UHGV virus genome: UHGV-0351052
Length of the DNA: 64,000 bases
Origin: a virus
Reading direction: 5' to 3' (one strand)
The notes beneath the pieces were generated by a model, which saw only the letters and a program-made list of their open reading frames with translations, was not told the DNA's origin and searched no databases. Shown here in pieces: positions 2,930-64,000 of the stretch (position 1 is its first letter; every line of letters begins with the position of its first letter). The position numbers were made by a program, and so were the translations under genes.

Positions 2930-3126
2930 TTTGAATGCTCTATAATTAATTTTAAGGCTTTTTCACTGACAAAAATTTCATCAGGACCTTCTTCTATAAC
3001 CCAATCAACTGTACGAAGCTGATTAGATAGGAGCTCGTATGTGAGCTCCTTGTCATAATTTTTAAATAGCTGGTCAATACGTTTCTTGTGGGCTTTCTTA
3101 AGTTGACGTTTATTTAAACGAGCCAT
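2926..3126 (-). CDS. hypothetical protein (66 aa)
   Basis: ORF track; stop overlaps start of next ORF. Confidence 0.5.
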   Translation of the reverse strand: MARLNKRQLKKAHKKRIDQLFKNYDKELTYELLSNQLRTVDWVIEEGPDEIFVSEKALKLIIEHSK

Positions 3127-3644
3127 TAATAACCTCGGTCTTGACGAGCGAAGTTTTCAGCATTTTTCAGATAATAAAGTTTAAAGATTTCTTCTGCTGT
3201 AAGACCAAGACCTTGAAACATGTTCAGAACAAAATGGAGAATATCAATCATTTCGAATTTGATTTCTAACTGGTCCTGTGGAGACAAATCAGTAATCAGA
3301 GTTTCACGACGTTCACCATGCTGAGCTTTCCACGGCTTCCATACAGCAGATGCATCTTTTTCGCCATTGCTCATACCACCAAGAGAAGTCAGAAGTTCGC
3401 GGAATTCATCATCAATATAATCTTTCTGATTACGCAGCCAATCAACAACTTCACCTGCGGTAGCCAAATCATCAGGATGACGATTATATTCAGGTTTATC
3501 TTTAGCTAAACGAATCTGCAGAGATTTCTGCATGTCAAGCATTACCTGTAGCGGGTCTTTTTCATCACCGAGAATATCCCAATATTCATTTTGAGCTTTA
3601 TCAGCGCCTTCGATCAGTTGACTACATTCGTTAAAGTAAGCCAT
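3126..3644 (-). CDS. 56: dCTP pyrophosphatase (dCTPase/dUTPase, MazG-like) gp56
   Basis: ORF 3126-3659; protein matches remembered T4 gp56; start trimmed to internal Met to give about 171 aa. Confidence 0.8.
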   Translation of the reverse strand: MAYFNECSQLIEGADKAQNEYWDILGDEKDPLQVMLDMQKSLQIRLAKDKPEYNRHPDDLATAGEVVDWLRNQKDYIDDEFRELLTSLGGMSNGEKDASAVWKPWKAQHGERRETLITDLSPQDQLEIKFEMIDILHFVLNMFQGLGLTAEEIFKLYYLKNAENFARQDRGY

Positions 3645-3704
3645 TATTTTTCCTTTCAATTCATTAATAAGTTAAATAATTATATCATTTGAATATGTAA
3701 GCAA

Positions 3705-4493
<789 letters not shown>

Positions 4494-5820: not shown

Positions 5821-5985
5821 TTACTCTTCTTTTTCTTTAGATTCCTCTTTTTTCTTTTTAGGAATCTGTTCAGGACCTTTATTTACTACAGCACCTGATG
5901 TTGTTCCAGTAGAGATATTTTCAGGATTACCACCTGAATCTCCAGCAACCATATCTTCTTTGATAAATTCTTTATATGTTTTCAT
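5821..5985 (-). CDS. 61.1-like small protein (54 aa) with capsid-targeting-like N-terminus MKTYKEFI
   Basis: Hand-translated MKTYKEFIKEDMVAGDSGGNPENISTGTTSGAVVNKGPEQIPKKKKEESKEKEE; not in ORF track (<60 aa). Confidence 0.45.
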   Translation of the reverse strand: MKTYKEFIKEDMVAGDSGGNPENISTGTTSGAVVNKGPEQIPKKKKEESKEKEE

Positions 5986-48181: not shown

Positions 48182-48395
48182 ATTTGACTTCCTCACCAGT
48201 ACATAAATCGTATTCAACTAAACGAATAGGTTCATGAATGCCATATCCCTGAACAGAAATTTCTGTCGTGGGATAAATTCCATCAATATCGCCCATATTC
48301 CACGCTTCATTAAATTGCTGTTCGCCTGAATTACTAAACCATTCGGCGAAAGCATTTAGCACATCTTCAGAACCTTCAATAATTATCTTTGCCAT
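48174..48395 (-). CDS. hypothetical protein (73 aa)
   Basis: ORF track. Confidence 0.5.
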   Translation of the reverse strand: MAKIIIEGSEDVLNAFAEWFSNSGEQQFNEAWNMGDIDGIYPTTEISVQGYGIHEPIRLVEYDLCTGEEVKYD

Positions 48396-48757
48396 TACAA
48401 ACTCTCGGTAAAGGTACGAGCGATAACGTCGCGCTGCTGTTCCGGAGTCAGAGAGTTAAAGCGAACTGCATAACCGGATACACGGATGGTCAGCTGCGGA
48501 TATTTTTCCGGATGCTTAACTGCATCTTCCAGAGTTTCACGACGCAGAACGTTAACGTTCAGGTGTTGACCACCTTCAATTTTAACTGTAGGCTGTTGCT
48601 CAATTTCAATTTCACGGGCATGCAAACCGTAGAAAATTTCTGGGTCTACAAAAGAGTCCTCTTTAAAGGTTTTAGAGACAATAATTCGTGCTTGAATACC
48701 ATCTTCAAAATAAATAGTACCTTTATGTGTGCCTTCAAGAATTTGATATGCTTTCAT
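48395..48757 (-). CDS. autonomous glycyl radical cofactor GrcA/YfiD-like protein
   Basis: C-terminus [60 protein letters not shown] with glycyl radical motif RVSGY; coding DNA for this half is GC-rich and host-like. Confidence 0.8.
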
Positions 48758-48764
48758 ATAAACC

Positions 48765-49145
48765 TCAATTAGAAAATAAATTTATCCAAGATTGTTCTTT
48801 AATTAAAAATGGCTCAGAATCATATGCCATTAAACTCTGTGTGATTAGTCCTTTAAAAGGCCCATCAATAAATTCCATGGTAAAATATGGAATTTTATTC
48901 ATTAGCCGTGCATTAGGAGCAGTGCACAAAACTCTGCATCCTTTGAATACACCTTTTTGTAATTTGTATTGCTTGGGATAAAATTCGCTCAAAATGTTAT
49001 TTTTTGCCAAAATTTCAAAATGATTCACCAATTTATTTTTAATAGTTTTTGGCGAAAAATAAAGATATTCGAAAAGCTGAGTGTCTGTCATCATTGCATT
49101 CCGATTACGAAAAACTGTGGACGAGTAATACCACCAATGCAACAT
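48765..49145 (-). CDS. hypothetical protein (126 aa), possibly 3-prime part of a split gene
   Basis: ORF track; overlaps next ORF by 55 nt in another frame. Confidence 0.4.
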
Positions 49146-49678
49146 TTAATATTACAGCAGCAGTGTACAGTGTCAATATGGACACTATAAATCTTATCCA
49201 TATCAGGAGATTTGACAGGCTCATCAATTATATACAAAATTCGCGAAAGCGATAAACCTCTGAACTTGCTTCCTTTATTACCAATAAAACTGCGCACAGA
49301 ATCAGTAAATAAACGAAAACGTATATCATCATTAGAATAACGCGAAAATTCCTTTTTAATATTATCTGCGGAAATTTTAGCGTAAGCTGAAGTATTAGAA
49401 AGAACAATAACTGTTCCACCGTCATACAACCAATTAGCGGCAAAATTAGTTACTGCAGTTGATTTACCGGATTGACGTCCACCATCTATACGAAGTGTGC
49501 AATACTGTTTAAGTAAGTCTTCAAATGGTGGGATATAATCGTTTTTACAAATTTCTTCTACTCTAGCATCAGAATGGTGTGTAAAAGCATTCATCAGGGA
49601 TAGATAAGGACCAGTTAAAAATGTTCTCATTTTGTTCTCTCTAGGTTTGGGCCATTCCATGGCGCATGAATTGTCCAT
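49091..49678 (-). CDS. P-loop NTPase-like protein with terminase-like Walker A (GGRQSGKS) and Walker B (YIIDE); possibly truncated
   Basis: Motifs read from translation; odd Cys-rich C-terminal tail suggests frame disruption. Confidence 0.45.
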   Translation of the reverse strand: MDNSCAMEWPKPRENKMRTFLTGPYLSLMNAFTHHSDARVEEICKNDYIPPFEDLLKQYCTLRIDGGRQSGKSTAVTNFAANWLYDGGTVIVLSNTSAYAKISADNIKKEFSRYSNDDIRFRLFTDSVRSFIGNKGSKFRGLSLSRILYIIDEPVKSPDMDKIYSVHIDTVHCCCNIKCCIGGITRPQFFVIGMQ

Positions 49679-49787
49679 TTCTGTATTTACCCATTACCGC
49701 ACTTGGGCTCGACCTTATTACAGGTTGGCGGGAATCCCTCACAGAATCATGAGGTCCAGGTTGTTCCCATGTTATTTGAATGTAAAT

Positions 49788-49805
49788 AGGCCTATACTTA
49801 GGCCT
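49788..49805 (-). terminator. hairpin downstream of ipIII
   Basis: aggcc-tatactta-ggcct. Confidence 0.45.
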
Positions 49806-49807
49806 TA

Positions 49808-50383
49808 TTAATTACCACGGGCCGCATTAGCAACGGCGTAAGCATACTGAACATTAGCGTCCTTAAACGTACCTTTAGAGGTATCTATTTCTGCCTTAAA
49901 GCCGCCTTTAGCCATAACATCGGCAAATTCTTTACGGAAAGCCATTGCATCAAGACCTTTCCATGATGATTTATGCTTGGCAAATTCAAGACCAGCGTAG
50001 TTGACAGCCTTAGCTAATTTATTATCAATAACCCATTTACCAGCTTTAGGCACAAACACCGGGCCTTTCTGTTTGGAGAATAGTTTTAAATTCCAGCGAC
50101 GAAGGTCACCGTCAGCTTTAACAAAAGCTGCGTCCAAGTTACTAGCAACAACATCTTGAATATGGCCAAATTTAAGCCCATCAACTTCAATATTTAGATC
50201 GGTACGCCAGCGAAGTCCTTCCCAAGCGAAGCCTTTAAAGTCGGAAGCCTTTGTAGCTAAGTACCGTTCAATAGGAGCTGTTTTAGGGTCAAAGCCGTTT
50301 CCTCGGTAAGTCCACTCATCTTTATTAATGCCTTTGGCCTTTTCCACAGAAGCTTCGGCGATAAATTCTTTATACGTTTTCAT
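49808..50383 (-). CDS. ipIII: internal protein III (capsid-packaged, CTS leader MKTYKEFIAEA)
   Basis: 191 aa with canonical capsid targeting sequence; matches T4 IPIII. Confidence 0.8.
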   Translation of the reverse strand: MKTYKEFIAEASVEKAKGINKDEWTYRGNGFDPKTAPIERYLATKASDFKGFAWEGLRWRTDLNIEVDGLKFGHIQDVVASNLDAAFVKADGDLRRWNLKLFSKQKGPVFVPKAGKWVIDNKLAKAVNYAGLEFAKHKSSWKGLDAMAFRKEFADVMAKGGFKAEIDTSKGTFKDANVQYAYAVANAARGN

Positions 50384-50444
50384 ATGTTTCCTTTAAATAT
50401 TTTAATTAGTAATTTGTCTCTTCAAGTAACTGTGAATATACTAT

Positions 50445-50467
50445 CACAATTCCAAGAGAAAGTAAAC
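50445..50467 (-). promoter_or_regulatory. T4-type early promoter
   Basis: atatactatcac -10 region, gtaaac 50462-50467. Confidence 0.5.
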
Positions 50468-50471
50468 AACT

Positions 50472-51002
<531 letters not shown>

Positions 51003-62422: not shown

Positions 62423-64000
62423 TAACCTTAATTGGTTTGTTGGTGTTGTTGAAGATAGAATGGACCCATTAAAATTAGGTCGTGTTCGTGTTCGTGTGGT
62501 TGGTCTGCATCCACCTCAAAGAGCACAAGGTGATGTAATGGGTATTCCAACTGAAAAATTACCATGGATGTCAGTTATTCAACCTATAACTTCTGCAGCA
62601 ATGTCAGGAATTGGAGGTTCTGTTACTGGACCGGTAGAAGGAACTAGAGTTTATGGTCATTTTTTAGACAAATGGAAAACTAACGGAATTGTCCTTGGCA
62701 CGTATGGTGGAATAGTTCGCGAAAAACCGAATAGACTTGAAGGATTTTCTGACCCAACTGGGCAATATCCTAGACGTTTAGGAAATGATACGAACGTACT
62801 AAACCAAGGCGGAGAAGTAGGATATGATTCGTCTTCTAACATTATCCAAGATAGTAACTTAGACACCGCAATAAATCCCGATGATAGACCACTATCAGAG
62901 ATTCCAACCGATGATAATCCAAATATGTCAATGGCTGACATGCTTCGCCGTGATGAAGGATTAAGATTAAAAGTTTATTGGGATACCGAAGGATATCCGA
63001 CAATTGGTATTGGTCATCTTATCATGAAACAGCCAGTTCGTGATATGGCTCAAATTAATAAAGTTTTATCAAAACAAGTTGGTCGTGAAATTACTGGAAA
63101 CCCAGGTTCTATTACAATGGAAGAGGCGACAGCTTTATTTGAGCGTGATTTGGCTGATATGCAACGTGACATTAAATCACATTCTAAAGTAGGACCAGTC
63201 TGGCAAGCTGTCAACCGTTCTCGTCAAATGGCATTAGAAAATATGGCATTTCAGATGGGTGTTAGTGGTGTAGCTAAATTTAACACAATGTTAACTGCTA
63301 TGTTAGCCGGAGATTGGGAAAAAGCATATAAAGCCGGTCGTGATTCATTGTGGTATCAACAAACAAAAGGCCGTGCATCCCGTGTTACTATGATTATTCT
63401 TACGGGAAATTTGGAATCATATGGTGTTGAAGTGAAAACCCCAGCTAGGTCTCTATCAGCAATGGCTGCTACTGTAGCTAAATCTTCTGACCCTGCTGAT
63501 CCTCCTATTCCAAATGACTCGAGAATTTTATTCAAAGAACCAGTTTCTTCATATAAAGGCGAATATCCTTATGTGCATACAATGGAAACTGAAAGCGGAC
63601 ATATCCAAGAATTTGATGATACCCCTGGGCAAGAACGATATAGATTAGTTCATCCAACTGGAACTTATGAAGAAGTATCACCATCAGGAAGAAGAACAAG
63701 AAAAACTGTCGATAATTTATATGATATAACCAACTCTGATGGTAATTTTTTGGTAGCCGGTGATAAAAAGACTAACGTCGGTGGATCAGAAATTTATTAC
63801 AACATGGATAATCGTTTACATCAAATCGATGGAAGCAATACAATATTTGTACGTGGCGATGAAACTAAGACAGTTGAAGGTAATGGAACTATCCTAGTCA
63901 AAGGTAATGTTACTATTATAGTTGAAGGTAATGCTGACATTACAGTTAAAGGAGATGCTACCACTTTAGTTGAAGGTAATCAAACTAATACAGTAAATGG
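62406..64000 (+). CDS. 5: baseplate hub / tail lysozyme gp5, partial (3-prime end beyond window)
   Basis: Hand-translated MEMISNNLNWFVGVVEDRMDPLKLGRVRVRVVGLHPP...; contains lysozyme domain paralogous to gene e and start of VEGN beta-helix repeats; runs to window end. Confidence 0.9.
   Translation, partial: MEMISNNLNWFVGVVEDRMDPLKLGRVRVRVVGLHPPQRAQGDVMGIPTEKLPWMSVIQPITSAAMSGIGGSVTGPVEGTRVYGHFLDKWKTNGIVLGTYGGIVREKPNRLEGFSDPTGQYPRRLGNDTNVLNQGGEVGYDSSSNIIQDSNLDTAINPDDRPLSEIPTDDNPNMSMADMLRRDEGLRLKVYWDTEGYPTIGIGHLIMKQPVRDMAQINKVLSKQVGREITGNPGSITMEEATALFERDLADMQRDIKSHSKVGPVWQAVNRSRQMALENMAFQMGVSGVAKFNTMLTAMLAGDWEKAYKAGRDSLWYQQTKGRASRVTMIILTGNLESYGVEVKTPARSLSAMAATVAKSSDPADPPIPNDSRILFKEPVSSYKGEYPYVHTMETESGHIQEFDDTPGQERYRLVHPTGTYEEVSPSGRRTRKTVDNLYDITNSDGNFLVAGDKKTNVGGSEIYYNMDNRLHQIDGSNTIFVRGDETKTVEGNGTILVKGNVTIIVEGNADITVKGDATTLVEGNQTNTVN

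Follow-up and report, generated by a model that had tools for sequence, protein, structure and literature searches.

The vs.8 locus

The sequence considered here is a stretch of 64,000 nucleotides (nt) from the virus genome UHGV-0351052, in the following called the window, and in particular its part between positions 48765 and 49807. With the window as query, the nucleotide identity to Tequatrovirus genomes is about 95-97%; it is a T4-like (Tequatrovirus) genome. In blastn alignments with T4, window 48300-49768 corresponds to vs.5-vs.8 and window 49799-50600 to ipIII-e. The minus strand carries all genes of the region. With a probability of about 90%, the region is an ordinary part of the early 'vs' cluster of T4: ipIII, a terminator-like hairpin, a non-coding leader, vs.8, vs.7 and vs.6 follow each other (Table 1), both vs genes are intact, nothing is frameshifted, and denV and ipII are not carried there. 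The most interesting object between these coordinates is the leader, most likely a structured RNA.

The likeness to T4 is close. The order of vs.8 and vs.7 (NP_049732 and NP_049731 in T4) and the ATGA by which they overlap are identical, as are 96% of the residues of Vs.8 and 100% of those of Vs.7; the nucleotide identity of the vs.8 region is about 96%. The difference lies upstream: T4 has denV and ipII between vs.8 and ipIII, whereas the window lacks them there. The product of vs.6 is an autonomous glycyl-radical cofactor of the GrcA/YfiD type, with its RVSGY motif present.

Table 1. Genes, motifs and predicted RNA elements around vs.8; positions are those of the window, aa stands for amino acids and bp for base pairs
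Feature	Position	Strand	Basis
vs.6	48395-48757	-	GrcA-type glycyl-radical protein, Pfam Gly_radical E 2.5e-18
vs.7, 109 aa	48765-49094	-	T4 Vs.7 identity, PHROG 2049, dN/dS
ATGA stop/start overlap of vs.8 and vs.7, 4 nt	49091-49094	-	kept across relatives, annotated likewise in T4
vs.8, conserved form (predicted), 179 aa	49091-49630	-	T4 homology, PHROG 1488, homologue starts
Cys-rich stretch HCCCNIKCC, predicted variable loop between last helix and last beta-strand	49139-49165	-	homologue alignment, model
Walker B LYIIDE with adjacent catalytic-type glutamate	49220-49237	-	homologue and gp17 alignments
Walker A (P-loop) GGRQSGKS with the P-loop arginine typical of large terminases	49460-49483	-	30 homologues, gp17 alignment
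Conserved non-coding leader, candidate pseudoknotted structured RNA	49651-49768	-	
Leader P1	49764-49768 with 49730-49734	-	
Leader hairpin	49749-49754 with 49737-49742	-	
Leader P2	49726-49728 with 49691-49693	-	
Leader P3	49722-49725 with 49712-49715	-	
Leader P4	49707-49708 with 49699-49700	-	
Leader P5 (possible)	49757-49759 with 49681-49683	-	
Leader 3' hairpin	49660-49663 with 49651-49654	-	
30 bp in place of the 886-bp T4 denV-ipII cassette	49769-49798	n/a	blastn breakpoints versus T4, T4 annotation
Terminator-like hairpin directly 3' of ipIII	49788-49805	-	
ipIII (internal head protein III), upstream neighbour	49808-50383	-	93% identity to T4 IpIII; PHROG 5341 E 2.5e-116

Two genes at the vs.8/vs.7 junction

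A preliminary description of this DNA had listed two open reading frames (ORFs) on the minus strand, 49091-49678 and 48765-49145, and had taken them for a terminase-like gene split by a frameshift, either a mutational or a programmed one. Both ORFs are present as described. The overlap of 55 nt that was reported holds for the longest ORF; with the conserved start ATG at 49094 it shrinks to the four nucleotides ATGA. The junction reads ...GGA ATG CAA TGA TGA CAG..., the TGA of vs.8 occupying 49093-49091 and the ATG of vs.7 starting at 49094.

A vs.8 homologue was located in every related locus fetched, and 36 loci had one of full length. In 36/36 the stop codon overlaps the ATG of the next ORF, as ATGA in 28 and as TAATG in 8, the stop codons being TGA (28) and TAA (8). 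The arrangement is kept in Tequatrovirus, Gaprivervirus, Moonvirus, Winklervirus and Jiaodavirus, where the identity of Vs.8 goes down to 36-44%, and the same stop and start are annotated in T4, SP18, Merlin, X20 and KP185. Because the orthologues in these five genera and all 36 loci keep two ORFs, vs.8 and vs.7 are to be read as two separate, intact genes without any frameshift; two independent ORFs in related phages had been named beforehand as the observation that would speak against a split gene. The comparison with T4 vs.7 and vs.8, likewise proposed, lends the frameshift no support either: T4 has both as separate genes with the ATGA overlap.

Both genes are under purifying selection, the ratio of non-synonymous to synonymous substitution rates (dN/dS) against relatives being 0.10-0.32 for vs.8 and 0-0.26 for vs.7. 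The Vs.8 family comprises 1010 phage records and 36 representative clusters. Its members have about 165-196 aa in two protein collections, and the few longer ones are N-terminal over-extensions. Among the 5.8 and 1.8 billion proteins searched, no homologue was long enough to be a fusion of Vs.8 and Vs.7; a match of 1153 aa (P0048) is a spurious repeat protein and was set aside. PHROG 2049 matches vs.7 at E 4e-54. A sequence search of the PDB with Vs.7 gave no significant match, and NCBIfam has no model for Vs.8 or Vs.7.

Most likely, the two genes are translationally coupled. Judged from the overlap, ribosomes that end vs.8 would re-initiate on the ATG of vs.7.

A programmed -1 frameshift near CAG TTT TTC, which would yield a Vs.8-Vs.7 fusion beside Vs.8, has very little probability. 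The gene vs.7 indeed lies in the -1 frame, and TTTTT precedes the stop in both the window and T4. What weighs against two strictly separate genes is that 11-31 codons free of stops precede the ATG of vs.7 in its frame; openness alone therefore leaves room for rare -1 slippage. The open stretch is, however, short and variable in length, and an upstream start codon in this frame is missing in several lineages. Nor is the run of T's conserved: the Phe-Phe codons ahead of the vs.8 stop read TTT TTC, TTC TTT, TTC TTC, TTC ATC or TTT TTT, and because they vary no slippery heptamer X XXY YYZ is conserved upstream of the overlap across the 36 loci. Genes read by re-initiation are typically laid out in this way, with a dedicated ATG inside an ATGA or TAATG overlap, and no fused homologue is on record in the searches mentioned. 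A single terminase-like gene broken into a two-piece pseudogene by mutation or sequencing error, as might be suggested by two ORFs that overlap out of frame with each other and by five consecutive T's located 20 nt ahead of the stop, can be dismissed almost entirely in view of T4 and 35 further loci with the identical ORF pair and stop, of intact orthologues that do not exceed about 246 aa (the long ones over-extended N-terminally), of a C-terminus FFVIGMQ-stop that is kept as protein down to 36% identity, of a vs.8 that equals its orthologues in length and stop and has an undisrupted frame, and of dN/dS values that stay well below 1 (0.0-0.32) across both genes.

The split ORF as first described adds nothing new: both genes were already known from T4, the likeness to terminase was published in 2026, and phages commonly vary at this locus by the loss of denV and ipII.

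Vs.8, a terminase-like P-loop protein

PHROG 1488 matches Vs.8 at E 1e-79 (profile positions 2-177 of 177), as it matches all 30 aligned family members. The position also agrees with the family, vs.8 being located between the ip/denV cassette and vs.7 and showing the stop/start overlap. The Walker A motif GGRQSGKS and the Walker B motif LYIIDE were correctly noticed from the start. Among the 30 homologues G51, G55 and K56 of Walker A are invariant, R52 and Q53 nearly so. The suspected likeness to terminase is borne out by hhalign, which places residues 39-153 of Vs.8 on residues 149-270 (of 610) of the T4 large terminase gp17 with E 1.3e-4. Walker A including the P-loop arginine, a shared RG and Walker B with its glutamate stand in register, the counterparts in gp17 being SRQLGKT and MIYIDE. 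In addition, a large-terminase PHROG is matched by 23/30 family members with a best E of 4e-8.

Because of these profile matches and the register of the alignment, Vs.8 is predicted to be a single-domain P-loop ATPase of the ASCE class, in sequence closest to subdomain I of terminases, and not a terminase. It shares with the ATPase subdomain I of gp17 (PDB 2O0H) the fold, Walker A with its arginine and Walker B with its glutamate. In contrast to gp17 it has just 179 aa and lacks the N-terminal region, the lid subdomain and the nuclease domain; the chain stops at residue 179, once the last strand of the core is complete. Its gene, too, is placed differently, among early accessory genes and outside the packaging module.

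Two results weigh against a specific kinship to terminases. Pfam Terminase_6N is matched with 14.2-14.4 bits versus a cut-off of 22, and 18/30 family members hit it below threshold only, so that membership in this Pfam family is not supported, and the AAA match of Vs.8 is sub-threshold as well. Further, structure searches put Vs.8 about equally near the RecA1 domains of superfamily 2 (SF2) helicases and terminases. The model behind the latter came from AlphaFold: an alignment of 14 sequences gave a confidence (pLDDT) of 49 and was unusable, while 30 sequences gave a usable model. With this model Foldseek returned weak, generic P-loop matches from the PDB, and sequence searches of the PDB with Vs.8 profiles yielded nothing significant.

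The odd Cys-rich tail of the preliminary description turned out to be neither a tail nor, as far as alignment and model tell, a frameshift product. It appears to be a variable loop ahead of a conserved strand, RPxFFVIGMQ, the family's most conserved C-terminal segment. In homologues the stretch is variable or absent, in the more distant ones the cysteines are replaced, and the 30-sequence model has a pLDDT below 50 at residues 160-167. A metal site was ruled out, the cysteines not being conserved.

The terminase relationship has already been published: the product of vs.8 was called ATPase-like and uncharacterised, with homology to the ATPase of T4 terminase, and it was reported to trigger the immune sensor Avs2, being recognised like terminase (PMC13601566). 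The same paper deals with two non-terminase Avs2 activators, Ksap1 and Ksap2, which are small, come from phages, fold like a terminase ATPase and are toxic together with Avs2, and lists vs.8 as a possible third case; our likening of Vs.8 to them is by description only. As for its role, an accessory early or anti-defence function is the likeliest candidate, though at well below even odds, because the cluster holds proven anti-defence genes and Avs2 recognition has been reported. The product of vs.4 in this cluster is presumably Acb2. Another neighbour, vs.3, encodes an anti-Thoeris sponge protein (PMC13243611). The GenBank labels of Vs.8 homologues are diverse: 'DNA packaging protein', 'terminase family protein', 'endoribonuclease' and 'P-loop NTPase' all occur. 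Of these, 'endoribonuclease' was apparently carried over by mistake from regB, which lies nearby.

The missing denV-ipII cassette

In T4, the stretch bounded by the denV stop and by a point 9 nt beyond ipIII measures 886 bp (bases 2977-3862 of the T4 locus, L001). In the window it is replaced by 30 bp that take in the terminator-like hairpin of ipIII. From the 195-aa ORF to the ipIII stop we measured 129 bp, close to the roughly 130 bp given before. That denV and ipII are absent from their T4 position, as had been stated, follows from the blastn breakpoints and from tblastn over the 64-kilobase (kb) window, where denV has no match and ipII finds just the N-terminal targeting peptide that it has in common with ipIII. 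A reservation weighs here: the absence of denV holds for the 64-kb window only.

Other phages show other arrangements of this locus. UFV13 has vs.8 adjoining ipIII, and the interval from ipIII to e holds denV along with other ip genes. In the match listing of PST, ipIV is annotated in the region and no denV is listed under the match; KP185 has the order e, one ip gene, vs.8. The compact order e-ipIII-vs.8 in one piece was found in none of the best-matching records listed, each of which needed at least two aligned pieces. The 5' ends of ip genes are repeated, as multiple blastn matches reveal, and offer recombination sites. Such cassette exchange is known from the hyperplastic regions of T4-type phages (PMC2839356). 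The loss of denV and ipII is ordinary variation at a hypervariable locus; cassettes would swap between T4-type phages here, and the one with denV and ipII is not carried here by this phage.

A second, weak match to the capsid-targeting peptide of ipII/ipIII (MKTYQEFIAEA-like) occurs at window 5893-5985 on the minus strand. Possibly a further internal-protein gene is located there, well away from the ip locus.

Conservation and context of the leader

In an alignment of the sequences upstream of vs.8 from five genera, the nucleotides are conserved far above the Vs.8 protein, with an invariant CCTGTAATAAGGTCGAGCCCAAGTGCGGTAA; the leader is GC-rich, and its near-invariant core reads ACCUGUAAnAAGGUC...CGGUAA. 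The leader is found in essentially all vs.8-carrying Tevenvirinae. It is not confined to them, since pattern scans of IMG/VR produced 63 usable loci that include non-T4-like phages of 24-360 kb. A covariance model built on the 48-nt core has just one hit in the window (49685-49732, 69 bits, E 6e-20) and scores 45-72 bits in 70 phage matches. Bacterial pattern hits reach 16-39 bits; because of these low scores and of a number that about equals a rough chance estimate for the pattern length, they are no evidence of bacterial copies. By blastn the core is present in 1062 phage records. In 50 of these, taken as a sample, it usually lies under no feature and otherwise under a 'hypothetical protein'.

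The element is not tied to vs.8, because in three Jiaodavirus-like loci (L016, L018, L024) it precedes an ip gene (MKTYKEFI...) instead; there, a cassette appears to have been inserted between leader and vs.8. Outside the T4 type, the nearest transfer RNA (tRNA) gene is 46-576 nt away in 20/30 loci, and on the same strand in 20/20. In the T4-type loci checked, no tRNA lies within 1 kb. Loci with a tRNA-adjacent element are the non-T4-like viral contigs L037-L074 and, at L196 1501-1544, the Vequintavirus FFH2. In one viral contig, L042, the new element and a tRNA gene are separated by an abiF RNA motif (3624-3655, Rfam RF03085, 45 bits).

Several copies have further features. Two outside the T4 type (L029, L066) are followed by a hairpin that, read by eye, resembles an intrinsic terminator; some seem to be preceded by promoter-like sequence, on inspection only; some are enclosed by a long closing stem, e.g., GTTGTGAC/GTCACAAC in L038. 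Tandem copies about 35-65 nt apart occur in L023 (5092-5250), L053 (9021-9180) and L051 (830-962), the second copy showing compensatory changes in P3 (GCCU/AGGC).

Proposed fold and base pairing

The core helices are 92% paired among 43-59 distinct sequences, versus 82-83% upon shuffling and at most 51% when slid. One pair of P2 was seen as AU, UA, CG, UG and GC, the closing pair of P3 as AU and GC, and one pair of P4 as CG, UA, GC and UG. Unpaired cells at these positions number 0/43 in alignment A4 and 2/59 in A5, where both concern the P2 pair. Tested without an alignment, the P2 flanks gave z ~6. In T4-type sequences the upstream P1 covaries as well (GC, CG, AU).

The possible long-range helix P5 would cross P1 in the pseudoknotted model. 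In ten diverged T4-type sequences two of its pairs covary and none is broken (CCG/CGG, CAC/GUG, CGC/GCG); in other lineages compensatory pairs were seen by eye (GGGUA/UACCC, GGGAG/CUCCC, CCAG/CUGG, GAGG/CCUC). A broad alignment-free test for P5 was just marginal (p ~0.03), and P5 therefore rests on the lineage-specific compensatory changes. On the ten sequences the full model is 94.7% paired, and its covariation score of 0.147, against 0.056 for shuffled ones, was reached by 0/500 shuffles, these shuffle controls ignoring phylogeny. Folding of the single leader sequence was no better than that of shuffles (z -0.19).

What the leader may be

Most likely, the leader is a separate structured RNA, and probably it is not a spacer or a coding sequence. 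The more specific proposal, that the 120 nt between ipIII and vs.8 are an undescribed, phage-specific, pseudoknotted RNA which in T4 has been annotated as the N-terminus of vs.8, we rate slightly below even odds. In Rfam 15, at E up to 10, nothing overlaps the element in the window and in five loci with known element coordinates (seven were searched), and at the gathering score there is no leader match in 14 loci. Neither by sequence string nor by topic did we find a description of the element in the literature; a prior one is possible.

Invariant unpaired nucleotides in a scaffold of several helices are a pattern of ribozymes, ligand-binding RNAs and protein decoys. Given its neighbourhoods, with anti-defence genes and tRNA clusters, the leader might take part in counter-defence or RNA processing, which is speculation. 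Equally speculatively, it could be a processed small RNA, or a leader that acts in these processes. Within the core, GUAAnAAGGU (49712-49721) is followed, after a short hairpin, by UGCGGU (49696-49701). We presume a resemblance to the 3' end of 16S ribosomal RNA (GUAACAAGGU ... h45 ... UGCGGU), which, with a chance of about 0.2 for the 10-mer, is a lead only.

Among known RNAs, the HDV-like or theta ribozymes of phages (PMC10879173) invite comparison. The leader is likewise phage-borne and tRNA-associated, and it shares the nested double-pseudoknot order P1, P5, hairpin, P1', branched domain, P5'. It differs in the decisive details. There is no catalytic C before the last strand, where the window has GUAAAUA and some lineages have no junction at all; P1 has no G-U at its base and closes with A-U or G-C; the conserved nucleotides reside in the branched domain; and the tRNAs are 46-576 nt away instead of abutting. 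The Rfam HDV model does not match the leader. By inspection of the sequence, an HDV-like ribozyme was ruled out for want of the catalytic C. A relationship to the stable RNAs of T4, rnaC and rnaD, was also discarded, no common motif order being visible by eye.

The promoter-early stem-loop cassettes (PeSLs) of the hyperplastic regions of T4-type phages (PMC2839356) are, like the leader, short conserved non-coding DNA at the edge of variable cassettes. They are repeated in each genome and consist of a promoter and a simple terminator, whereas the leader is single-copy, about 120 nt long, multi-helix and common to unrelated phages. With one copy in 64 kb, it was ruled out as a repeated PeSL.

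A competitor of a folded RNA, though a rather unlikely one, is an element in which the DNA itself would serve as a promoter, an operator or a recombination site flanking the variable cassette. The leader does border the hypervariable ip/denV cassette, the T4 DNA upstream has served in plasmids as 'the promoter of vs.8', and many T4-type phages have a -35-like box, GTTTACA, after P2. DNA sites, however, hardly explain why compensatory changes keep P1-P5 paired with G-U on one strand only, or why the same core recurs in unrelated phages, co-oriented with tRNAs in 20/20 cases. The terminator-like sequence seen by eye after the core in L029 and L066 also speaks against it, and the single copy in the window differs from repeated promoter/stem-loop cassettes. 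Finally, the minus strand has no sigma-70-like site within 49631-49770.

A structured RNA in the leader, if real and new, would be a testable object in a cluster rich in anti-defence functions. It would also mean that even the best-studied phage may hold an unrecognised conserved structured RNA, common to more than 1000 phage genomes.

Where vs.8 starts

A coding leader would require that vs.8 starts further upstream, with 195 aa here and 219 aa in T4. This is improbable. In its favour, the ATG at 49678 opens a 195-aa ORF; the T4 annotation gives Vs.8 219 aa, with 40 additional residues at the N-terminus, and some database entries have 194-196 aa. In T4, however, 8 nt are duplicated in tandem (CTTATAGA) shortly before the conserved start, and as a result the two phages differ in the frame of the sequence that precedes MRTFLTG. 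The N-terminal extensions in other phage entries use yet other frames. The PHROG 1488 profile and most homologues begin at this very methionine (MRTF/MKYL). Coding was excluded because the core shifts in length by 1-2 nt and the frames shift; its base pairs, moreover, covary. A micro-ORF was ruled out on the same grounds of indels and shifting frames.

The conserved Vs.8 would hence be the protein of 179 aa, and the 16 codons that the 195-aa ORF has in front of it are probably non-coding. The longer N-termini annotated in T4 (219 aa) and elsewhere (189-246 aa) are probably over-predictions. This matters wherever Vs.8 is to be expressed, e.g., in Avs2 studies. Annotated extensions run through the RNA element in T4 (L001 2887-2950, corresponding to about 64849-64912 of NC_000866) and in the entries P0028, P0001, P0008 and P0010.

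Far from this locus, at window 62925-63422 on the plus strand, a second lysozyme-like sequence is 43% identical to T4 e. From the T4 map we take it to be, probably, the lysozyme domain of the baseplate protein gp5.

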